DNA from: Candidatus Micrarchaeota archaeon
GTDB taxonomy: Archaea > Micrarchaeota > Micrarchaeia > Anstonellales > Bilamarchaeaceae
Direction: 5' to 3'
Length of the DNA: 48,755 nucleotides
Assembly (NCBI GenBank): GCA_043827025.1
Contig: JBDRPL010000007.1
Location: 1 to 48,755 of the forward strand
In this document: positions 4,049 to 18,160 of the stretch, one piece after another
Layout of the letters: the number at the start of each line of letters is the position of its first letter
Numbering within the stretch: position 1 is the stretch's first letter
Position numbers and translations under genes: made by a program
Notes under the pieces: model-generated
Database searches by the model: none
What the model saw: only the letters and a program-made list of their open reading frames with translations
What the model was told of the DNA's origin: nothing

Positions 4049-5155
4049 ATGACTCACAGTTCAACTATGATTAGCAGGCCAAAATCGCCAAACCAATTGA
4101 CAAGAGGCTCAGCATTAAGGCCAATGGCAATGGAAAACAGGCCATTCGAAAAATGGCTTCTTGAAGCAAATCAACAGGGCCTTGTTCTTGCATCATTCAG
4201 AAGAACAGAAGAATCTGCACTGCTAGCCGAGGTAATACTAACTGGCAAGAGAAAACAAAAAAAGGCAGAAATTCTCAGGCTAAACGAACAATTTAGAAAT
4301 GCAGTAGAAACAAGTGTCCTTGAAATAGAGCAATTGTCAGCTAACGGTGTGCCAAATGAGAAACTTCCAGCGGTTTTAAAATTTGAAGCATGGTTCGCAG
4401 ACGCAGTTCAACATGGAACAGTGCCTGAACATTTAACAGGGCCTGGGGAAAAAGGGCGCATACGAGGCGAAATTCCACTGGGCCTGGATACAGAAAACAG
4501 TATTGAACTTGATTTATGGACCGGGACGATGGTTGCTTTTGTTGAGCCTGGCAAAACATTTGGAGAAGTAGCAGAAGTCAGTTCAGACCCATTCGGCAAG
4601 ATGATTAGATGCACTAACCAAAGCAACGGAACAACCTGGGAGTTTTTTTTACCCCCTAGATATAAAAATGCAAAGGATGCAATTCTCGTTCTCGAACATC
4701 CGAATTACGAACTTGCTATGCAAGGGAATAGAAGAATAATCCTGCCAAGAGATAGAAACATTGCACATATATCTCTGGTCAATGGATTCCTCGACTCTAG
4801 CGGACAATCCACTGATTCGATAAATGGTTTACCTATTGATTTGGCAACTGGGTATTCATATATGGCCAGAGGCTCAAATAACAAAAGAGTTGGTCCTTTG
4901 AGATTGAAATTAGAGGCAGGCATGACACTTGCCCCTAGAGTCGTAGATGCCTCTGAAGCTGCAGGAATGCTTGTTGAAACCAGTGGCAATCCACAGGGAG
5001 AACACGACCAACTCGTAGAACTTGGAAGATACCAACAAAGCCTGGAAACAACATGTAAACTCGGACCCGGAGCACAAACACACTTTGATATTGATGACGT
5101 GCCTAATGAATCAGGCAGGCAATTCAGCGGTCCTGGAATAAACCCGGAGAGATAG
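4049..5155 (+). CDS. Hypothetical protein inserted in exosome superoperon
   Basis: 368-aa ORF with upstream T-tract and TTTTAAATA; no certain family. Confidence 0.75.
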   Translation: MTHSSTMISRPKSPNQLTRGSALRPMAMENRPFEKWLLEANQQGLVLASFRRTEESALLAEVILTGKRKQKKAEILRLNEQFRNAVETSVLEIEQLSANGVPNEKLPAVLKFEAWFADAVQHGTVPEHLTGPGEKGRIRGEIPLGLDTENSIELDLWTGTMVAFVEPGKTFGEVAEVSSDPFGKMIRCTNQSNGTTWEFFLPPRYKNAKDAILVLEHPNYELAMQGNRRIILPRDRNIAHISLVNGFLDSSGQSTDSINGLPIDLATGYSYMARGSNNKRVGPLRLKLEAGMTLAPRVVDASEAAGMLVETSGNPQGEHDQLVELGRYQQSLETTCKLGPGAQTHFDIDDVPNESGRQFSGPGINPER

Positions 5156-7724: not shown

Positions 7725-7781
7725 AAATGACCAAAACCGCTCTACAACGGTATCAGAGTTAATAGTGCCGAATTCGATAAT

Positions 7782-8558
7782 ATGAATATGGGAGAACCGC
7801 CTACAACTTACGACTTAGTGAATAATTCGTGGAAATCCACCACGAACATAATATTTGGCGAGACTCCCGGCGAGATGAAAGAGTATGATGCCTACTTGCG
7901 CGAACCATTGGTTGGAAAGTCTGTCGAATCCTTCCTTTCAGGAAAAGATGTTTTTGTCACTTCAATGCAATACGACCCAAAATCAAGGTTCTTCGATTAT
8001 GAAGCAGATATGAAAAGCGCAGAATCTATTCTTTCCAAACCAATAGACATCAACAAGATAAAAGATATTGATTCGCTTTTCGAAGCAGTACAAGAAAAAA
8101 TAATCTACAGCGGAAACAAAATCCTTGGCAATTCACACTATGTCGAGAACTCAGATAGCGTCACTGACAGCAATTACGTCTTCAATTCATCCATGGTATT
8201 CAGCGCGAAATACATTGCATATTCATATATGATGAGGAAAACAGAGTATGGATTTGCATCAACCTGCACGGGGGACAGCACAATGACCATACGTTGTTTT
8301 TACAACAATGCCATAAGAAGATGCTTTGAATGCATTACAGTTGCGAGCGCATCGGATTGCTTTTTCTGCCATAATCTTCTTGATTCTGCAGATTGCATGT
8401 TCACATTCAATAAAAGAGCGACAAGAAACATGATTGGAAACATTCAATTGACAAAAGAACAGTATGTTAAACTGAAAATTAAGCTTGTAGGCGAAATTGT
8501 TGAGGATCTTAAGGTCAAAAAAAGGGCAATGTCCCTATTGAACCTCATGACAAAATGA
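7782..8558 (+). CDS. Cys-rich repeat protein, subtype A (array copy 1)
   Basis: WKSTT.IIFG, SGKDV, PIDINKIKDIDSL, YSGN.ILGNS, MIGN..L. Confidence 0.85.
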   Translation: MNMGEPPTTYDLVNNSWKSTTNIIFGETPGEMKEYDAYLREPLVGKSVESFLSGKDVFVTSMQYDPKSRFFDYEADMKSAESILSKPIDINKIKDIDSLFEAVQEKIIYSGNKILGNSHYVENSDSVTDSNYVFNSSMVFSAKYIAYSYMMRKTEYGFASTCTGDSTMTIRCFYNNAIRRCFECITVASASDCFFCHNLLDSADCMFTFNKRATRNMIGNIQLTKEQYVKLKIKLVGEIVEDLKVKKRAMSLLNLMTK

Positions 8559-8571
8559 ATGGGTTGATTAG

Positions 8572-9348
8572 ATGGTATGGGAAGAACTAGAGGATGAATT
8601 TACAAAAACCTGCAAACTTCTGCTCGGGACAGAACTCACAGGACTTGATGAATACGGCCCATGGCTTGGAAAAAGAGTACCATTGCCATATCCTGTAAAA
8701 TCAACAATAAGCGGAAAGGAGGTCTGGGTGGCACCACCATCCAATTTTGCAGGCATGAAATTCTCAAACGTCATATCCTATGATGAGATGGAATATGCAA
8801 ACAAAAGCCCTTTTGGATATGAGGATATAAAAAATTCTGGCATGAAAGAGGTTTTTCAGAACGTAATGAAGCCAGTATCACATTTCACCGGGAATTTCAG
8901 GTACAAGAACTATGAAAACGTGGATAAATGCAGTGGCGCTGGCGCTGGAAGAAACCTGTATTATGGAGAGGACCTTTTCATAGACATAAAGAATGCGGCA
9001 TACTCGAATTATGCGATGTTCTCGACAAACATATTCGGTTGCCATAACGTCCCATATTCCCAGTTCTGCATCCATTGCTATAATTCTGTTAACCTAACCA
9101 GGGCATTCGAATGCGACGGGTGCTACCATTCCAGTGACATCCTTTTCTGCCATAACTCGGAAGCATTGAGCAATTGCATGTTCTGTTTCAACACAAAGAA
9201 CAAGAGGTATGCAATAGCAAACGTTGAGGTTGGAAGAGAAGAATACTTGAGAGTAAAGAAAATTCTACTGGACTACATTGGAAAAGAACTAAAGGAGAAG
9301 AAATATCTTGAAACAGATATTTACAGCATAGCAAAACAGGTGTTTTGA
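8572..9348 (+). CDS. Cys-rich repeat protein, subtype B (array copy 2)
   Basis: SQFCIHCYNS, FCHN.E.L.NCMFCFN.K.KRYAI.NVEVG. Confidence 0.85.
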   Translation: MVWEELEDEFTKTCKLLLGTELTGLDEYGPWLGKRVPLPYPVKSTISGKEVWVAPPSNFAGMKFSNVISYDEMEYANKSPFGYEDIKNSGMKEVFQNVMKPVSHFTGNFRYKNYENVDKCSGAGAGRNLYYGEDLFIDIKNAAYSNYAMFSTNIFGCHNVPYSQFCIHCYNSVNLTRAFECDGCYHSSDILFCHNSEALSNCMFCFNTKNKRYAIANVEVGREEYLRVKKILLDYIGKELKEKKYLETDIYSIAKQVF

Positions 9349-10131
9349 TTGGAAGATAATGGGTACTCGCAGCTTAATCGCGCTTGGAAGAACACGTGCA
9401 AGATACTTCTAGGCACAGAGGTAGGAGAATTGCTGGAATTCAAAAACTACTTGAAAAGATACACTGATCCTATTGAAAAGAGGAAATCAGCGATTTCAGG
9501 AAAAGAAGTCGTAATATCATCAAACAAGATTCCAAATGATGCAAAGGTAATTGGCCACGATGAGATGAAGGAATATGAAAAGATGATCTCACAACCCTTT
9601 GAGATCAATAAAATAAAAGACATGGATTCGATAATTGAAACCTTGCACGAAAAAGCGTACTACACAGGAAACATAATACTTGGAAACTCAAGCAATACTG
9701 CCAGCTGTCATCGTTGCGTCAATGTCAATTATGCACTAGGGTGCCAAGATGTTTATGATGGGAAGTATATTGCATTTACCACTTCTATAAGAAACCCTGA
9801 GTATTCTTTTGGCTGCTGTTTCGGAGGAGACACACAATTCTGCATCAAAGTCCTTGACCCTTACAAACAGATGAGGTGCCTTGAGACATTCCATTGCAAT
9901 GTTGTTTCGGACTGCTATTATTCCGGAAGCATAGAGGACTGCAGCAACTTGATGTTCTCATTCAACCAGAGGAACAAGCAATATATGATTGGGAACGTGC
10001 CATTGAACAAGGATAGTTATCTTAAGTTGAAGGAAAAACTTCTTGAGGAAATTAGCGAATCCATGAGAAAAAAGAAATCACTTCCTTCAGTTATTGGAAT
10101 CATTAGCGGAAAGAGTGAGTGGAATGAATGA
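9349..10131 (+). CDS. Cys-rich repeat protein, subtype A (array copy 3)
   Basis: AWKNTCKILLG, SAISGKEV, INKIKDMDS, YTGNIILGNS; TTG start after AGGTG. Confidence 0.85.
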   Translation: MEDNGYSQLNRAWKNTCKILLGTEVGELLEFKNYLKRYTDPIEKRKSAISGKEVVISSNKIPNDAKVIGHDEMKEYEKMISQPFEINKIKDMDSIIETLHEKAYYTGNIILGNSSNTASCHRCVNVNYALGCQDVYDGKYIAFTTSIRNPEYSFGCCFGGDTQFCIKVLDPYKQMRCLETFHCNVVSDCYYSGSIEDCSNLMFSFNQRNKQYMIGNVPLNKDSYLKLKEKLLEEISESMRKKKSLPSVIGIISGKSEWNE

Positions 10132-10894
10132 AATGGACGACTTCGAAAAGATATTCCAGACGATCACATCCATAATATTCGGAAAGAGAATCACTGGCTA
10201 CAAGGATTACGAGAAATGGCTTACTCGAAACGTAAGCAACAACGACTATGGCGAATCAGTGATAAGCAAGGAGAAGATTTATTTGCCACCCTTCGACTTT
10301 TACATGGACATAAAACATAATATAGTTACTATAGAGGAAGCTTACGGAATACTTGGAAAAAAGCAGTTGAGTGAAGAAAAATTGAACAACTTATCTTTTC
10401 ATAATGCCAAGAAAGATCTGCAGAAACTGGCAACAACTACGCCCAATACTATCTATGGAGACAGCAGCAACATGAAGGAATGCACGTTCTATTACAATTC
10501 GCATTCATGTTATATGGGGTGCGCGCTCAACAAATCAAAATGCTGCATGTATTCTTTCTGGCCAAGATACTCAGAATATGCCCTAGGAGGATATTACCTC
10601 TTCTCATCCCAGTTCTGCATAAAGTGCTATAATTCCGAGAATCTTGTTCGATGCTTCGAGATGAGCGACTGCAACAACTGCAGTGATTCAATGTTTTGCC
10701 ATAATTGCGAGAATTTGACAAATTGTATGTTTTGCTTCAACGTGAAAGCAAAGAGATATGCCATATGCAACGTGGAAGTCGGCAAAGAGAAGTACCTAGA
10801 GATAAAACAAAAAATTATGGATGAAATGATAAAGAAATTAGAGCAAAACAAAAGTATCGACATCAACATATTCAACATAGGTGTTTCAAGATGA
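10124..10894 (+). CDS. Cys-rich repeat protein, subtype B (array copy 4)
   Basis: SQFCIKCYNS, FCHNCENLTNCMFCFNVKAKRYAICNVEVG; ATG 10124 overlaps previous stop. Confidence 0.85.
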   Translation: MNEMDDFEKIFQTITSIIFGKRITGYKDYEKWLTRNVSNNDYGESVISKEKIYLPPFDFYMDIKHNIVTIEEAYGILGKKQLSEEKLNNLSFHNAKKDLQKLATTTPNTIYGDSSNMKECTFYYNSHSCYMGCALNKSKCCMYSFWPRYSEYALGGYYLFSSQFCIKCYNSENLVRCFEMSDCNNCSDSMFCHNCENLTNCMFCFNVKAKRYAICNVEVGKEKYLEIKQKIMDEMIKKLEQNKSIDINIFNIGVSR

Positions 10895-12474
10895 ACTCAC
10901 CTGCATACGATGCCATAAATAGGGCTTGGAAATCAACAACCAAGGTTATTTTTGGCGAAGAGATAGGCGAACTTGACGAATATAAAGAATGGCTCTCTGG
11001 TTTGATAGACAAGAACATAGTTCGAAAGTCGACAGTTTCAGGAAAAGACGTAACATTCTCGATAAAGGAATATGCTCCTGATTCGAAATGGATAAGTTTT
11101 GATGAGATCGATAATAACAAAAAATTCGAGCCACTCAATATCAATGAAATAAAGGACATTGATTCGCTTGCCCAGGCCGTTTCAGACCGTGCATATTATT
11201 GCGGGAATACTGTTCTTGGAAATTCAAGAAATGTGGAAAGAAGCGCAAATATTACTGATTGTCATTTTGTAACCAACGCGGCCCAGTTTATGAATTCAAA
11301 ATATATTGCCTACTGTACGGTTGGCAGAGACAGCAGCTATTGTTTTGGAGTGCATGGCCCAGGTGATTCAGAGTTTTGCATCCGCTGTACCCAGACATTT
11401 GCAGTTAAGCGCTCTTTCGAAGTGTGGTCTGCCCAAAATTGTTCTGACTGCTATTATATATCAAATCTTAATGGCTGTTCAAACTGTATTTTTTCTTTTC
11501 ACCTGAAAAACAAAAGATACTGCATCGGAAATCTTGAACTTGATAAGGACAAGTATTTCTCAATAAAGAGATCTCTTTTGGAGCAGATGGTTGGCGAACT
11601 GAAGAAGAACAAGTCTCTTCCATCTTTGCTTGACATCACTAAAAAAGGCAAACTCCAGAAGCCGAATCTTAGGCAAAAAGCAGATGAAAAGAAATTTGAG
11701 GATAAAAATGCCATCGAAACCGCATTTACCGACACCTCTGCAGTAGTGCTTGGAAGAAGGTTGAGAAATATTGACGATTACAATAACTGGCTTTATGCCC
11801 ATGCACATAAGATCGAAGAACGAAAATCCGCAATCAGCGGCAAAAGGCTGCTCATGCTACCCTATGTCATAGCACTCGAAGCTCTTCCAAAAGATGTTGT
11901 GACCATGGACGAAGCCTGGCAAATCGGGGAGTCAGTACGTTTTAGTAGAGAAGAAGCGGAGAATATAAGCCTGGCAAATATTCATCAGTCAATTGGCAAG
12001 CTCGCATACTTCACAGTCGACATAAGAGAAGGAAAGGTTGAGAACGTTATTGAATCCACCGTCATTGTTAATGGATCCAACTGCTACAAGGCATCTGCAA
12101 TCGTAAGTTCGAAGTATTGCGGCTGTGGCATGTGGCCTAAGGATTCAACAAATTGCTTCGGCCTTGATACGTTGTTTGATTCTGAGTTCTGCATCAACTG
12201 CTACCATTCCATGAAACTAACCAGATGTTTCGAGATGGACAACTGCCGTGACTGCAGCGATTCAATGTTCTGCCACAATTGCGAATCACTCAACAATTGC
12301 ATGTTCTGCTTCAACACAAAGGCGAAAAGATACGCGATCGGGAATGTTGAAGTTGGAAAGGAAAAATATCTTGAGATAAAGAAAAAAGTAATGGACGAGA
12401 TGGCAAATAGACTGGAAAAAGATAAAAAAATCAAGATCAGCATCTATGACTTGCTTGCTACTTCTTCTCACTAG
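10891..12474 (+). CDS. Cys-rich repeat protein, fused subtype A + subtype B (array copy 5)
   Basis: N-half has A motifs (AWKSTT, INEIKDIDSL, YCGN.VLGNS); C-half has B motifs (FCINCYHS, FCHNCESLNNCMFCFN.K.KRYAIGNVEVG). Confidence 0.87.
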   Translation: MNSPAYDAINRAWKSTTKVIFGEEIGELDEYKEWLSGLIDKNIVRKSTVSGKDVTFSIKEYAPDSKWISFDEIDNNKKFEPLNINEIKDIDSLAQAVSDRAYYCGNTVLGNSRNVERSANITDCHFVTNAAQFMNSKYIAYCTVGRDSSYCFGVHGPGDSEFCIRCTQTFAVKRSFEVWSAQNCSDCYYISNLNGCSNCIFSFHLKNKRYCIGNLELDKDKYFSIKRSLLEQMVGELKKNKSLPSLLDITKKGKLQKPNLRQKADEKKFEDKNAIETAFTDTSAVVLGRRLRNIDDYNNWLYAHAHKIEERKSAISGKRLLMLPYVIALEALPKDVVTMDEAWQIGESVRFSREEAENISLANIHQSIGKLAYFTVDIREGKVENVIESTVIVNGSNCYKASAIVSSKYCGCGMWPKDSTNCFGLDTLFDSEFCINCYHSMKLTRCFEMDNCRDCSDSMFCHNCESLNNCMFCFNTKAKRYAIGNVEVGKEKYLEIKKKVMDEMANRLEKDKKIKISIYDLLATSSH

Positions 12475-14464
12475 GAACCGTCTTCTCCTCTTTCTTCCCC
12501 ATATCCCGTCTTGCCTTCTGTAGCTGAAGTATCGCGTCAGGAGTTTCATCAAGATAAGCTTCCTCGCTCAACGGGTGAGGCAAATTAGGTTTCTCAACCT
12601 TTGGACGAGGTGGCTGGATCGCATCATCCTCATCATTATTTTCTGCAGGCACCTCATGTTCATTCTGGGCCATATTCTGCATTGTACTATAATACAAGCC
12701 TGATTGAGGCATATCCTTCTTCTCAGCAACAGGAGAACTATAACTCTGCATTCTTGGAAGAGGTGCAGCCCCTTCTTCCCTAAGGCCCCACTTGGCAGCA
12801 TCAACTACCCTTAATTTCATAGGGAGAAGATATTTCGTACCGTCGAACAGACGAACTATGCACTCCCTCTGGTGCAAACGAACGAACATCTCTTTCTTCG
12901 ATTCTTCGAGTTCAGTAGTTGCACGATTCTTCTTAAAGTATTCTTCAACTTTAATCTCCATTATCGAGCTCAGCAATGCAGCATCCTGCTTGTTTATCTT
13001 GAATGCCATTATGTTTCTTGTGTTTGAGACAATCGAATCCATGACTTCTTTGCTGAGCTGGCCAAGGTACTGGCATGAAAGATAGGCAAAAAGATTAAAC
13101 TTCCTTGTTTCTGAAAGTATATCCTTGGTGACCCTGGTTTCAACCCTTGGAAATTCATCTACTACAAGGATAGTTGGTTTGTCCTGGAGCTTGCCAGTAA
13201 TTGCAAGTATGTACATCTGGTTTATCACTGCGCCTGCAAGGAAGCTTATCATCCGCCTTCCAAAGAATTTGGGGTCAAAAGAAACAATGTTTACCCTATT
13301 ATTCTTGAGTATGTCAAGGAGATTCTCCCTTTTCTTTTCCTTGCCCAGGTAAAGCTGATACTCGCCAATGAAATTCAGAATGGGAAGTATGGCATTGTTA
13401 AAGTGGTGGATATAAATGTCATTGAATTCCTCATCGAAAAACCGCTTTACTTCCTCATTGTCAGACTGGCTGACGAACTCTGCTTTTACTGACGAATCAG
13501 TAAGCAAGAGGCTGATGTTATTGAGTTCAAGTTTATTGAGCGAAGAAAGCAGATGAACTGCATAGAACAGAACCCGCTCCGAATATTTGTTCTCCTGGCC
13601 AATTGATGATGTTATGAGCTGCGATACCAGCTGAGTAAGCATTGGAGTTTTATCTCCTCCGACATCCAAAGGCTCCACATAATTTGAAATAAAATTAACT
13701 ATTTTTGCATATGGCATGACCTTTGTAAACTCACCATGAGGATCGACCATAACTATCCTAATATTGTTCCCATACTTCGCTTCAAGGGCCCGAATAAGCA
13801 CAAAAAGAGCCTTGCTCTTTCCTGAACCAGATGTTCCGGCAATCAAAGTGTGCTGTAGAGGATCAAAATTATCAACACCAAGGCTTGTACCCGTTTCTTC
13901 GAAAACAGGGAATTTCGAAGCCATATGCATTATTTTTGGCAAAGGCTCCAGAAGCTCAATGTATATCGAAGGGTTCTTTTCAAGATTAATCTCAAAGAAT
14001 TTATGAGGGCTTTTGATTATTACTTTTCCTTTTTGGCCATTGGCATTTACAGCCATGCCTGTAGCAATGAATCTTCCAAACAACTTGGTTATGCTAACCC
14101 TAAGCTCCTCTATATTCTCCTTAAGCATAAAATCCAGGACATCATGCCTTGAGCTATTTATCAGGTAAAACCTTGGAAATGGGAAGTATGAGCCGCTTGA
14201 AGAACTCAATAAACTAGGCTCACGCAGCCTAAAAGGAAATACCAAAGGTGAGATGTTCCTAAGGCAATCCTTTTCCTTTACGAAGAACTTTACAGTATTG
14301 TTGTTCCTCTTGACTACAATCTGAAAAGCATGTGGTGAGAAAACATTCGAGAAGGTTATGAATCCGAAAAGGGGGAATCTGGCTTGGACTATCGTATTAA
14401 AGAATTTCTTGACGTCCTCCTGTCCAACCTTCTCTGAGTACAGGTGAATTTCTCTAACTTCCAT
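12458..14464 (-). CDS. HerA/VirB4/TraG-like P-loop ATPase
   Basis: Walker A GTSGSGKS, VDPHGE, Walker B VVDEF, SETRKFNL, QYLGQL; low-complexity C-terminal tail. Confidence 0.85.
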   Translation of the reverse strand: MEVREIHLYSEKVGQEDVKKFFNTIVQARFPLFGFITFSNVFSPHAFQIVVKRNNNTVKFFVKEKDCLRNISPLVFPFRLREPSLLSSSSGSYFPFPRFYLINSSRHDVLDFMLKENIEELRVSITKLFGRFIATGMAVNANGQKGKVIIKSPHKFFEINLEKNPSIYIELLEPLPKIMHMASKFPVFEETGTSLGVDNFDPLQHTLIAGTSGSGKSKALFVLIRALEAKYGNNIRIVMVDPHGEFTKVMPYAKIVNFISNYVEPLDVGGDKTPMLTQLVSQLITSSIGQENKYSERVLFYAVHLLSSLNKLELNNISLLLTDSSVKAEFVSQSDNEEVKRFFDEEFNDIYIHHFNNAILPILNFIGEYQLYLGKEKKRENLLDILKNNRVNIVSFDPKFFGRRMISFLAGAVINQMYILAITGKLQDKPTILVVDEFPRVETRVTKDILSETRKFNLFAYLSCQYLGQLSKEVMDSIVSNTRNIMAFKINKQDAALLSSIMEIKVEEYFKKNRATTELEESKKEMFVRLHQRECIVRLFDGTKYLLPMKLRVVDAAKWGLREEGAAPLPRMQSYSSPVAEKKDMPQSGLYYSTMQNMAQNEHEVPAENNDEDDAIQPPRPKVEKPNLPHPLSEEAYLDETPDAILQLQKARRDMGKKEEKTVPSEKK

Positions 14465-14603
14465 AAATATCCACCGATATATACTATGTAGATGTAATAT
14501 TTATTAATAATACCGCTTCAGAACGGGTTCCATAAAAATAAGCCATAACTAACCATAAATGAACATTTATAAAACCTTTTGGGCATATTTTGACCTGATA
14601 AGG

Positions 14604-16205
14604 ATGAAAAAATTACACATAACCCGAACACCACTTGTACAAAGCAGAGAGCTTTGCGGAAGGTGCAATGGGGCGAATGTCTTTGTCAAAAGAGAAGATG
14701 CTCAGCCATCAGGCACTACCAAATGGAGAAGGTGCGCTGCCCTGCTTGAAAGTCGCGGGGACAAGGAAACTGTTTTTGTTCACATAAGTTCAGGAAACTC
14801 AGGCTACAGTATGGGAATGGTGGTCCAGCAAAGCGAAGACCCTACCAAGAAGGTCGTTAACATTGTCGATAAAAGAACACCTGAAGAAATAAAGAAAAGG
14901 TTAATGTCATGCTCGATTGTTGTGGAAATGGATTTGAGCAAGGAATTGATTACTGAAGATCGAATGAAAGAGGTTGCAATAGAAGCTACTGGATACACAG
15001 GATCCAACGAAAATATAGTTATAGTCGAAAGATACCAGCTTGAAGGGGGATATAGGGGAATCACTGATGAGATTGCAAAACAGCTCCATACCGAAACCCA
15101 AGGCAAAACAAATAGGCCAGACGTCATATTCTGCCCAGTAGGAAGCGGAGAAACCATGGTGGAATTGGCAGCAAGAGTCCACGAGGTATGGAAAGACAAT
15201 CCTCCAAAAATTGTTGGAGTAACAGTTCCTGGAAATTACATAGCTGCAAGATATTTCAGCGGCCAGGAAGGCGCGAAAAGCACCGGAAGGAGCATAGCAG
15301 ATAAGTTGACTTGTGCGTATTCTGCATTCGCAGAGCTTGCAGTAAGGACACTGAACAGCGGTGCAAAATTAATGGTTATGAATGATGAGGACGAACTTAG
15401 AAGAAGCTACAAATGGCTTAACTCGATAGGCATTCCTGTAGAACCTTCGGCAGCAGTTGCATTCCTTGGGGCAATGAACTACTCGCGTTTAATGTGCGCT
15501 GAAGAGAAAGATGGGCTGACAGCTGAAAAGACAATTGTCATAATCAACACTGGGAAGGGAGTATTCGATCAAAAAGCAGTTGACAGAATATGGTTAAAGA
15601 GACTAAGGGCTGGTGCGATATATCTCGGAGTGGCTGCATTGGGCGCAGTATTGGCAACAATCGCATACTTTGGATGGATAGCACCTCGCCAGCAATTGCA
15701 CGACATGTTCCGTGGAAAACTGGAAGCAGAGGCACTGATGTATGGCAATGACAAGACAAGAAAGGGCTCTGTTTATATGGGTTTTCTGGACAAGGAGGAA
15801 ATAGCTGCAATGTGCGCAACAGTACCTGGCAAAAAATGCGATCCGGATTCACGTCCCAATAAGCATGACCTTAGGGATTTCACAGACAAGGAACTAGCGT
15901 TTTATATTGAATACAAAAGATACCTGTCTTTTTCAGGATTTAGTGACACAGAACTTGCTTATTTTGTTGAAAGGAGAAGATGGGAAATGGAAGGAGATGG
16001 CCTAGGAGCAAGAATAGCAGGAGATTTGCATTATGCATACGAACACGGGCGTTTCGAACTAAGGGACAATAAAGCAATCTGGTGGTATCAAAACAATGAG
16101 GGAAGATGGTTCAGATATGACGGCAAAGGAAACATGGTCTGGGAAGATGAAGAACAACCAAAAGACCAATGGGACAGAATGATCCAAAACATCATAAAGA
16201 AATAA
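14604..16205 (+). CDS. Fold-type II PLP enzyme (threonine synthase/dehydratase-like) fused to TM helix and unknown C-terminal domain
   Basis: TPL, VKRE..QPSGTTK.R, SSGN.G, PVGSG, EPSAAVA, INTG; hydrophobic AIYLGVAALGAVLATIAYFGWI; start chosen at MKKLHI. Confidence 0.8.
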   Translation: MKKLHITRTPLVQSRELCGRCNGANVFVKREDAQPSGTTKWRRCAALLESRGDKETVFVHISSGNSGYSMGMVVQQSEDPTKKVVNIVDKRTPEEIKKRLMSCSIVVEMDLSKELITEDRMKEVAIEATGYTGSNENIVIVERYQLEGGYRGITDEIAKQLHTETQGKTNRPDVIFCPVGSGETMVELAARVHEVWKDNPPKIVGVTVPGNYIAARYFSGQEGAKSTGRSIADKLTCAYSAFAELAVRTLNSGAKLMVMNDEDELRRSYKWLNSIGIPVEPSAAVAFLGAMNYSRLMCAEEKDGLTAEKTIVIINTGKGVFDQKAVDRIWLKRLRAGAIYLGVAALGAVLATIAYFGWIAPRQQLHDMFRGKLEAEALMYGNDKTRKGSVYMGFLDKEEIAAMCATVPGKKCDPDSRPNKHDLRDFTDKELAFYIEYKRYLSFSGFSDTELAYFVERRRWEMEGDGLGARIAGDLHYAYEHGRFELRDNKAIWWYQNNEGRWFRYDGKGNMVWEDEEQPKDQWDRMIQNIIKK

Positions 16206-16247: not shown

Positions 16248-16634
16248 ATGAAAAAAACAATAATGATCACTCCGATAATTTTAGTGTTCTGTTTCTTTTT
16301 GTTCGGCTGTCTTGGCCCTGCGCCAAAGGAATGCGGCACAGACAATGCCTGTTTCTCAGAAGCTGTAAAGACTTGCAGCCCTGCAAATGGAAAATCTATT
16401 GAATCTTCAGGTACAATAGAAGCAACAGTAAAAGGATATGAAGCAGACAAGTGTGTCATCTATTTCAAGATAACCGAATCACCAGAACTCCCTGCCCTGA
16501 AAGACAAGGATATGACTTGTAAGTTTCCTAAGGAATACTTGACCAGCGAAAACCCATGGGGCATCAGTAGCAAAGGTGAAGAATGGTGCACAGGCTCATT
16601 CATAGATTACTTGAAAACATTGACGATGCAATAG
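16248..16634 (+). CDS. Putative lipoprotein (paralog 1)
   Basis: Signal peptide ending LFGC; CGTD.ACF.EA.KTCSPA; KDMTCK; CTGS. Confidence 0.8.
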   Translation: MKKTIMITPIILVFCFFLFGCLGPAPKECGTDNACFSEAVKTCSPANGKSIESSGTIEATVKGYEADKCVIYFKITESPELPALKDKDMTCKFPKEYLTSENPWGISSKGEEWCTGSFIDYLKTLTMQ

Positions 16635-16648
16635 AAAAACAGAAATAG

Positions 16649-17089
16649 TCATTTCTTTTTCTTTAAAGCAGATTCCAAATATTTTCTAATCTCATCCGTC
16701 TTTGCATAATAGAGCGCATTCGAGCCATGGTCATCAAGCATACCTACGCGAGCACCATGTTCGACAAGATACTTGATGATCTTAAAATGTCCCTTGTCAG
16801 CAGCACACATCAAAGGAGTTCCGCTTGTGCACCTGTCAATTGCGTTTACATCTGCACCATTCTCGACAAGATATTTTACCATTTCAAAATTGCCAAGATA
16901 AACTGCTCGCAACAGGGCAGACTCCCGATAATGGCCAGTGGGCCAGTTGACTTCTGCACCTGCAGAAAGTGCAGCCTTAAGTGCTTTTAAGTTATTTTTC
17001 CGAACAGCCTCAAACATCAAAGTATTCAATTTTAGCCTGGCTTCGAAGCTGAGATTAACCTCCTTCCCTTGTTTCTTGTTCTTTGGCAT
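16649..17089 (-). CDS. Ankyrin repeat protein
   Basis: SALLRA..GN...VKYLVENGADVN, TPLMCAA..GH..IIKYLVEHGA. Confidence 0.92.
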   Translation of the reverse strand: MPKNKKQGKEVNLSFEARLKLNTLMFEAVRKNNLKALKAALSAGAEVNWPTGHYRESALLRAVYLGNFEMVKYLVENGADVNAIDRCTSGTPLMCAADKGHFKIIKYLVEHGARVGMLDDHGSNALYYAKTDEIRKYLESALKKKK

Positions 17090-17101
17090 AACAAAATCAC
17101 A

Positions 17102-17710
17102 TCATTTTTTCCTGATTTTCTTTTTTGATTTCATTACCGAAAGCAGATAATACTTTACTTCCTGGCTCTCGGTATGGTCCAATGCAGTTTTTCCAAGATC
17201 GTCCTTTACCTTTAGATTGGCACCCTTCTCAACCAGATATTTGACAACATCCAATATTCCGCCAAGACATGCCTGCATCAGCGGCGTCTCGCCACGAAGA
17301 TTCTTCACATTGACCTTTGCCCCGTTCTCAACAAGGCATTTGACCAACTTGAGGTTGCCATCATAGGAAGGACCCATGAGAATAGGTGTCCCATATTCTG
17401 CATCCTCATTCGGATTCGCCCCGGCCTCAACAAGCAGTTCCACCATGCTTATATTTCCAGAACGCACAGCTTCGCGCAAAGGAGTACGGTCTTTCCTGTT
17501 CCTAAGTTTAAGGTCTGCACCTTGTTTTACAAGATACTTGAGGATTTCAGGCCTGTTGCATAGTATTGCATAACTAAGCGCAGTTTCCATGTCAAAATTA
17601 AACGAATTCAGGCCAGCACCATCTCCAAGCGCAGATTCTACGCCTTGAAGATCACCTTTGCGTATGGAATCAAAAAGAAGCTTGTTTATGTTTGTTCCAG
17701 AATCTGCCAT
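17102..17710 (-). CDS. Ankyrin repeat protein
   Basis: About five ANK units (TALSYA, TPLREA, TPLMQA, GKTALD). Confidence 0.93.
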   Translation of the reverse strand: MADSGTNINKLLFDSIRKGDLQGVESALGDGAGLNSFNFDMETALSYAILCNRPEILKYLVKQGADLKLRNRKDRTPLREAVRSGNISMVELLVEAGANPNEDAEYGTPILMGPSYDGNLKLVKCLVENGAKVNVKNLRGETPLMQACLGGILDVVKYLVEKGANLKVKDDLGKTALDHTESQEVKYYLLSVMKSKKKIRKK

Positions 17711-17785
17711 TATACTCTTGCCTAACGAACAATTAAAAATATTACCTGAAAAGACTTTTCAGAAAAAAAGAATAATGGTGAACAT

Positions 17786-18160
17786 ATGAAAAGAATGTTA
17801 GTTGTATTATTGGTAGCTTTTTATATATTCGGATGCACTAGCGGACCTCAGATGAAAGACTGTGGAACAGATTCGGCATGCTTCGAAGAAGCTGCAAAGA
17901 CCTGCAGTCCGGCAAAGGTAAAAAGCGTTGAAGAGGGAATGGAAGTTGAGGGAACGTTAAAAGGAATTGAAGGGAATAATTGCATCATAAGTCTAAAGAT
18001 CGTAAAATCCTCCACAGTTACCATCTTAGAAGGTAAGGAGATGACCTGCAAAGTTCCAAAAGATGCAATGGCTGAAAAATCTACAGACTTTGAAGGTATT
18101 GACCCTGATGCATGCACAGGATCCCTGGTAGACCTCCTAAAAAGCATGGGCGCACAATAG
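17786..18160 (+). CDS. Putative lipoprotein (paralog 2)
   Basis: Signal peptide ending IFGC; same Cys pattern as 16248..16634. Confidence 0.8.
   Translation: MKRMLVVLLVAFYIFGCTSGPQMKDCGTDSACFEEAAKTCSPAKVKSVEEGMEVEGTLKGIEGNNCIISLKIVKSSTVTILEGKEMTCKVPKDAMAEKSTDFEGIDPDACTGSLVDLLKSMGAQ

Follow-up and report, generated by a model that had tools for sequence, protein, structure and literature searches.

The stretch analysed here, referred to as the window, comprises 48,755 nucleotides of contig JBDRPL010000007.1 from a Candidatus Micrarchaeota archaeon (GCA_043827025.1) and carries an array of homologous genes of two subtypes, A and B, next to the gene of an ATPase. The reading favoured here, tentatively and at a little short of an even chance, is that the A+B pairs are interchangeable specificity (adaptor) subunits for this adjacent soluble HerA/VirD4-like ring ATPase. 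The established parts of the system are its anatomy, the obligate order of A and B, the ATPase linkage, a shared operator, the A–B covariation and three architectures. The points in favour of an adaptor role are co-occurrence and adjacency with the ATPase, the common operator, the presence of one ATPase for many AB proteins and a variable face that is kept among orthologs. Furthermore, no cargo is fused to AB, the ATPase lacks a transmembrane segment, and no channel gene occurs among the sampled neighbours.

The array consists of five open reading frames (ORFs) encoding six homologous units in the order A1, B1, A2, B2, A3-B3 (Table 1). The initial annotation had described five tightly coupled genes with intergenic gaps of 13, 0, -8 and -4 nt, an observation that was confirmed; all four subtype motifs that it quoted were found in the ORF translations, and the homology of the six units, with the third pair as one polypeptide, was borne out by BLAST (all-versus-all E ≤ 5e-16) and end-to-end alignment. 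Pairwise identity is 34–40% between A units, 33–42% between B units and 21–30% between A and B. With a 19-residue Kyte-Doolittle window, the maximum mean in the five proteins was 1.34, consistent with the reported lack of signal peptides and with the absence of a membrane segment; among 115 A and 107 B units, no hydrophobic segment ≥1.6 was detected by this hydropathy scan, which is not a signal-peptide predictor. No AB protein examined is fused to a cargo domain, and long AB open frames that resembled cargo fusions were ruled out as start-codon over-extensions. Searches of Pfam, NCBIfam, PADLOC and PDB sequences gave no match to the AB proteins, and the named homologues of B2 come from Candidatus Micrarchaeota. 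No additional AB copy was found elsewhere in the 1.33-Mb genome. One contig of run X1, possibly the source, contains the stretch complete, and contigs from three other runs cover it in pieces only, with few differences. As previously stated, the family has no described function in the literature searched (supplements and subscription papers were outside its scope), and the accessible part of PMC11452946 contains nothing relevant to it.

The ATPase gene is convergent with the array and overlaps the last AB stop codon on the opposite strand. Neither this gene nor the shared operator was mentioned in the initial annotation, and the system is larger than the five genes described there. The ATPase scores 38 bits against DUF87 in Pfam (cut-off 23), 29.5 against FtsK (24) and 27 against TrwB (20.5), and the Walker A, Walker B and ExRK arginine-finger motifs that define the superfamily are kept across 38 homologues. 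Across 251 Micrarchaeota-phylum genomes, which include kin and are not independent, AB and the ATPase occur together in 44, the family only in three (assemblies of 60–170 contigs), the ATPase only in four and neither in 200; the family is present in 47/251 and the ATPase in 48/251. The match extends to single genera, in which presence is patchy (4/14, 3/6, 3/5 and 1/5 genomes in both searches). The ATPase lies ≤2.5 kb from an AB gene in 30/37 genomes, in four different orientations (16 convergent, 13 co-oriented and 1 divergent). While the ATPase is mostly single, AB numbers 1–28 matches per genome. The partnerless ATPases, at 53–63% identity, are found at G035:C1:36578-38254, G037:C1:63389-65068, G030:C30 and G065:C32; an AB match in G030 was discarded as a single weak hit (4e-5), unconfirmed by the B profile. 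The C-terminal tail of the ATPase (window positions 12461–12760; homologues in L067 and L069) is of low complexity, varies from absent to about 350 aa, and is acidic, then Lys/Ala-rich. At L040:2927-3707 (G038), the A gene directly behind the ATPase is split over two frames by a frameshift or an assembly error.

The palindromic operator CCG(C/T)T-N4-A(A/G)CGG has exactly two matches in the genome, one before A1 and one before the ATPase; about two would be expected across the genome, and these sites helped to define the pattern. With ≤1 mismatch, it recurs in 11/85 upstream regions (seven other genomes), mostly at a fixed distance, versus a mean of 0.3 and a maximum of 3 in shuffles. The regulators found beside the system are of the HTH_10 type in 12 loci and tandem Lrp-like in 13, with some overlap between loci. 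This genome encodes an HTH_10 homologue on contig C5, and an HTH_10 regulator may bind the operator. The same operator is common to a gene for a pyridoxal phosphate (PLP)-dependent enzyme, which adjoins the ATPase in seven other genomes. However, this gene was ruled out as a core part, being found in 5/41 relatives, all five of which carry the system. It is tandem-duplicated in G023 and stop-split in G004. No other recurrent enzyme neighbour was found in the surveyed loci.

Table 1. Coordinates of the AB array, the ATPase gene and associated features in the window.
Feature	Position	Strand	Remarks
A1, subtype A unit (predicted beta-solenoid)	7782..8558	+	258 aa
B1, subtype B unit	8572..9348	+	258 aa
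A2, subtype A unit	9349..10131	+	260 aa; TTG start
B2, subtype B unit	10124..10894	+	256 aa; ATG start; model pLDDT 90, pTM 0.87
A3-B3, fused	10891..12474	+	527 aa; model pLDDT 85, pTM 0.85
FtsK/HerA-superfamily ATPase (DUF87, TrwB/VirD4-like)	12458..14464	-	668 aa; Walker A/B and ExRK intact; no transmembrane segment; low-complexity tail
Palindromic operator, copy 1	7737..7750	.	32 nt 5' of A1 start; just upstream of a TATA-like run
Palindromic operator, copy 2	14513..14526	.	49 nt before ATPase start; 33 nt before divergent PLP-enzyme gene
PALP (PLP-dependent) gene, lineage-limited accessory	14559..16205	+	Pfam PF00291; threonine-synthase-like domain, hydrophobic segment, variable C-terminal domain

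The subtypes were expected to separate by phylogeny, and a 231-unit tree places each on its own side of a branch: 115 A, 107 B and 9 single-gene units are set apart with support of 99, 90 and 99, respectively (FastTree, used for all trees). On this tree, the state switches between fused and split at least six times. The fetched loci contain 152 distinct ORFs: 85 AB fusions, 31 A genes with B next in line, 28 B genes behind an A, six at locus edges and two fragments. This census supports the proposal that A+B is the functional unit, and where both are intact, A always comes first. In other lineages, A-like units are also found on their own, as single-gene ancestors. The closest relatives of each pair in other genera share 62–66% (A2), 55–58% (A3-B3) and 51% (A1) identity; because these are closer than the neighbouring pairs, the three pairs must have diverged as paralogs long ago. 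The distances of A units correlate with those of their cognate B units (r 0.63 over 104 pairs; maximum 0.14 in permutations), which linkage alone could give. The suggestion that the three versions mix partners or co-polymerise found no support: the members of a cognate pair share their descent, the majority of copies are fusions, and an inter-unit Cys pair matches within cognates.

A survey of gene neighbourhoods, which the initial annotation had recommended for DPANN archaea and the candidate phyla radiation (CPR), recovered the ATPase link in Micrarchaeota, CPR and gut Bacilli. A divergent, single-solenoid form was found at 79 loci from CPR, Micrarchaeota and gut Bacilli-type records (the best 80 of 118 matches, 79 of them retrieved). 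The ATPase is present in 73/79 of these loci, typically directly upstream, and an AraC plus GyrI-like regulator in 36/79. The gut Bacilli, which are presumably members of the order RF39, carry a minimal module of regulator, ATPase and solenoid only. The five gut Bacilli-type genomes checked measure 0.9–1.3 Mb, and the single-solenoid module is rare (2/300 Bacilli and 2/301 Patescibacteria-phylum genomes, seed genomes counted). Another 14 of the 301 Patescibacteria-phylum genomes encode multi-copy double-solenoid proteins of ~570 aa, which match the A, B and single profiles twice over (hhalign 98–99%). In 7/14 of these genomes, the fetched regions include an ATPase without a membrane anchor; in an eighth, one adjoins the copies by coordinates. 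Loci L167–L183 of this phylum hold large arrays of double-solenoid proteins with conserved CxxC motifs at both ends (45 distinct proteins, within-locus identity 33–53%), next to such an anchor-free ATPase. In some Micrarchaeota, the single-solenoid form is tandemly expanded without an A/B split, with six copies in L057 (G234) and seven in L086. The module also occurs in genomes of ~1 Mb titled Muribaculaceae or Gammaproteobacteria (L090, L084 and similar loci), titles that may be mislabels. Plasmids, phages and IMG/VR gave no match to a single-solenoid query.

In AlphaFold2 models of the A3-B3 fusion (527 aa; predicted local distance difference test, pLDDT, 85) and of B2, each unit starts with an alpha/beta region, continues with short strands at six-residue intervals and finishes in a helix, with helical caps at both solenoid ends. 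Together with coupling analysis, the models support the beta-solenoid fold put forward at the outset. Each unit is predicted to be a narrow, helix-wrapped beta-solenoid with 12 residues per turn, probably giving a rod-shaped protein, and one solenoid face would be buried by the unit's own helices with the other exposed. Across 218 cognate pairs, the mean coupling z is 1.8–1.9 at i+12 versus 0.2–0.3 at i+18, which points to a two-sided, narrow solenoid. Judged from the couplings, with 12–150, 21–164, 21–176, 278–423 and 457–493 among the strongest, the terminal helices probably lie on one solenoid face. Cys, Ser, Ala and Gly are enriched at every third position; a Cys/Ser periodicity of three or six residues had been noted earlier, and the couplings give 12 residues per turn. 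Foldseek returned no PDB match at E ≤ 0.001. VIA-align against 48,161 chains found nothing that reached Z ≥ 8 (best Z 6.4), a search in which the N-terminal subdomain was barely tested and by which a new fold is not proven.

A rod-shaped AB dimer would recall the pentapeptide-repeat DNA mimics. Given an ATPase of the FtsK/HerA superfamily, it is conceivable that the motor translocates DNA as HerA does, with AB dimers as DNA mimics or DNA-binding guides. Such a role is quite improbable: A and B are near neutral (median isoelectric points 6.6 and 7.0; net charge about 0), no consistent link to a nuclease or repair gene was seen, and dozens of distinct specificities would be hard to account for.

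The initial annotation, which describes the paralogs as Cys-rich, had recommended a metal and Fe-S analysis; a metal or Fe-S role found no support. The number of Cys per unit ranges from 1 to 18 across the family, Cys interchanges with Ser at the every-third ladder positions, and A units have no invariant Cys. Moreover, core Cys residues are not pairwise co-conserved (best phi 0.49; several i+6 pairs negative). Because they are unpaired, swap with Ser and vary so widely in number, a disulfide ladder and metal clusters are both disfavoured. The units might still store metal, Fe-S or sulfur, act in redox reactions or co-polymerise as filament subunits, an explanation that could draw on the 7–15 Cys in each of the six units here, on the near-invariant H, N, E, C and K of B units and on the PLP enzyme under the same operator in one lineage. 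Of the explanations considered it is the least credible, given the Cys pattern just described and the helical caps at both solenoid ends; it would also leave the ATPase link and the ortholog-specific face unexplained.

Direct contact between A and B had been proposed, and both the fusion model (predicted template modelling score, pTM, 0.85) and a covarying Cys pair argue for it. The second-strongest coupling overall in the 218 cognate pairs is between position 62 of A and position 523 of B, with a mutual information (MI) z of 11.1 versus 4.9–6.3 in 20 shuffled pairings. Both positions are Cys in 50 of 201 ungapped pairs, only one in 14 and neither in 137 (phi 0.83, versus 0.49 for the next best Cys pair). 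Cys62/Cys523 changes 34–40 times on the tree; among 24 independent pairs, about 20 change in the same direction and about 0 in the opposite one. Because 5/26 split pairs carry both Cys, the pair could connect separate polypeptides. Cys62/Cys523 is absent from all three pairs of the window. Other inter-module couplings were too weak to count as contacts and were set aside (G156–A403 with MI z 8.2, the rest ≤6.5, shuffled maximum 6.3).

Variable (high-entropy) solenoid positions are 9–12% identical between distant paralogs. Among close relatives, the same positions are 57–79% (A) and 44–68% (B) identical, compared with 37–45% (A) and 31–51% (B) for equally variable non-solenoid positions, with relatedness bins taken from the remaining columns. 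Solenoid identity is the higher of the two in 74/82 (A) and 69/86 (B) pairs, which are not independent. The variable solenoid positions are also richer in Y, F, W and H (21% versus 6% in A). Because the face diverges between paralogs and is kept among orthologs, it has the pattern of a specificity determinant. One could suppose a defence function, in which each AB senses a conserved virus or mobile-element protein and triggers the HerA-like ATPase, many sensors thereby sharing one effector. Patchy presence within genera, the large variable repertoire and weak matches to HerA profiles of defence systems (best E 4e-11 for mad8, 4e-7 for HerA) would fit. Nevertheless, defence is distinctly unlikely, as the variable face is kept among orthologs and not fast-evolving, no nuclease or NADase partner is present, and the linked regulators are of AraC/GyrI-like, Lrp-like and HTH_10 types. 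The neighbours are likewise mostly housekeeping genes; PADLOC matches at 1e-15, obtained without a background control, occur in only 9/130 single-module neighbours, and four of these are housekeeping cross-hits.

The ancestry of the ATPase invites a further explanation. ATPases of the AB and single forms make up one clade, sister to the sampled CPR ATPases (86 rows, including two generic CPR rows). At a hydropathy of 1.8, a transmembrane segment is found in 0/40 Micrarchaeota ATPases versus 2/2 generic CPR homologues, and 4/66 single-module ATPases reach this value. Among 233 sampled neighbours (130/141 candidates of single modules plus 103/103 of Micrarchaeota), which are mostly housekeeping with few defence genes (PADLOC run on the 130 only), there is no secretion-channel gene. 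AB heterodimers might instead be exported substrates without signal peptides, the ATPase a coupling protein feeding an unlinked channel and the face a binder of host or environmental surfaces, in analogy to the paired WXG100 or PE/PPE substrates of type VII secretion. Export would agree with the TrwB/TraD/VirD4-like profile matches, the pairing of adjacent genes that lack signal peptides, the Cys pair between units, the small-genome lineages of the carriers and unlinked VirB4-like ATPase genes with membrane partners in this genome. The CPR coupling-protein-like sister ATPases are, according to the accessible part of the source, mostly unlinked to virB4 (PMC12102498). Export is unlikely all the same, in view of the missing membrane anchor, the lack of a co-located channel gene in the surveyed loci and the gut Bacilli module with only its three parts. 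Core Cys residues are not disulfide-like, and the inter-unit Cys pair occurs in just 50/201 pairs. Three ATPases related to the partner profile, each with or beside membrane segments, lie at G000 C2:13176-16366, C9:58832-61195 and C20:35328-37598 and may belong to DNA-transfer systems.

According to the adaptor reading, the three A+B pairs, each a predicted two-lobed beta-solenoid, would serve one motor. The exposed variable faces would bind a paralog-specific target, likeliest a protein or nucleoprotein, and a conserved surface, e.g., the B-specific H-N-x-E and K residues, would dock on the ATPase. ATP hydrolysis could then translocate, remodel or release the captured target in the cytoplasm, with a ligand-sensing regulator switching the module on. 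The ancestor may have been one solenoid gene behind an ATPase, its product presumably a homodimer; in Micrarchaeota, this gene would have split into A and B and the pair multiplied, and in some CPR, an internal double form would have multiplied. It is possible, with the balance leaning against it, that a coupling-protein-derived motor with up to dozens of two-solenoid recognition subunits constitutes an undescribed machine in DPANN, CPR and reduced gut Bacilli. A separate origin or expansion of the solenoid doubling in Micrarchaeota and in CPR is part of this modular-machine reading and is offered with the same reserve.

Several points weigh against an adaptor role. Four genomes, two of them 96–100% complete, hold the ATPase without a detectable partner, and the closest outgroup ATPases (two rows only) are membrane-anchored and coupling-protein-like. 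The A–B Cys pair would suit an oxidising, extracellular site, and the face-comparison counts carry the dependence stated above. Finally, the evidence for the presumed binding of AB to the ATPase and to a target is genomic and from covariation.

Genomes of about 1–1.5 Mb devote up to roughly 40 kb to the AB family, and its study bears on DPANN/CPR host interaction and on the role of orphan coupling-protein-like ATPases. If the modular-machine reading is true, a small symbiont could pick out particular macromolecules, its own or the host's, to be imported, exported or remodelled, with F-box-like specificity in a minimal genome. Because a two-gene minimal version exists in gut Bacilli and Saccharibacteria, the system should be expressible and testable, and the ortholog-conserved variable face and the A–B Cys pair offer concrete residues to probe.

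As for its surroundings, the array is inserted behind a series of housekeeping genes (exosome, Pcc1, prefoldin and DHH). The exosome–prefoldin operon contains a 368-aa ORF without a Pfam or NCBIfam match (4049–5155, +). Two ankyrin-repeat genes (within 16248–18160) lie between two related small genes of unknown family (16248–16634 and 17786–18160).

Among known systems, the soluble DUF87/HerA-type ATPase with a dedicated partner gene resembles the HerA complexes HerA-NurA and the anti-phage Sir2-HerA and DUF4297-HerA, whose partners are nuclease or NADase effectors. Here, by contrast, the partner is a solenoid A+B pair without a nuclease or NADase match, present in up to dozens of copies per ATPase, and no such effector is recognisable in AB by Pfam, NCBIfam or PADLOC. 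Profile and PDB sequence matches of the ATPase to HerA are weak, covering the Walker A region only or falling far below curated cut-offs where given. Type VII secretion pairs EccC, an FtsK-like ATPase, with WXG100 or PE/PPE substrates; the AB system likewise combines an FtsK-like ATPase with adjacent, expanded gene pairs without signal peptides, whose products would be obligate heterodimers. However, AB is a predicted solenoid rather than a helical bundle, the ATPase is single-domain and soluble, and there are no membrane components. Type IV coupling proteins (VirD4/TraD/TrwB) belong to the same superfamily, and the AB-linked clade is sister to sampled membrane-anchored CPR homologues, but the ATPase here has no N-terminal anchor, linked type IV secretion system or relaxase, and scores 21 bits against TraD (cut-off 521). 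In Patescibacteria, 5,713 VirD4-like homologues were reported, only 148 of them near virB4, with exaptation left open; the accessible part of that study does not mention a solenoid partner of orphan homologues (PMC12102498).

With respect to fold, the best structural matches are the Tenebrio antifreeze protein (1ezg) and the Lolium ice-binding protein (3ult), at Z 5.3–6.4 over 78–97 residues, values under the range that the tool gives for chance. The alignment is confined to the solenoid, and small inward residues are common to both. Tenebrio-type antifreeze proteins have a regular internal disulfide ladder and a Thr-x-Thr ice face. The AB units share their 12-residue turn, but the AB core Cys are unpaired and the exposed face is highly variable; conversely, 1ezg and 3ult lack the helical wrap and the ATPase link. 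Hexapeptide left-handed beta-helices (LpxA, gamma-carbonic anhydrase) have 18 residues per turn, whereas AB coupling peaks at i+12. Atlas clusters named 'Caib/baif family protein' score 0.95–0.96 with B2 and a single-solenoid relative. An identity as CaiB/BaiF coenzyme A (CoA)-transferase family III was rejected; because there is no CoA-transferase match at E ≤ 1 and the clusters have no Pfam family, the name looks like a propagated mis-annotation. The AB–ATPase system lacks features that define HerA-effector systems, coupling proteins, type VII substrates and the beta-helix families known so far.

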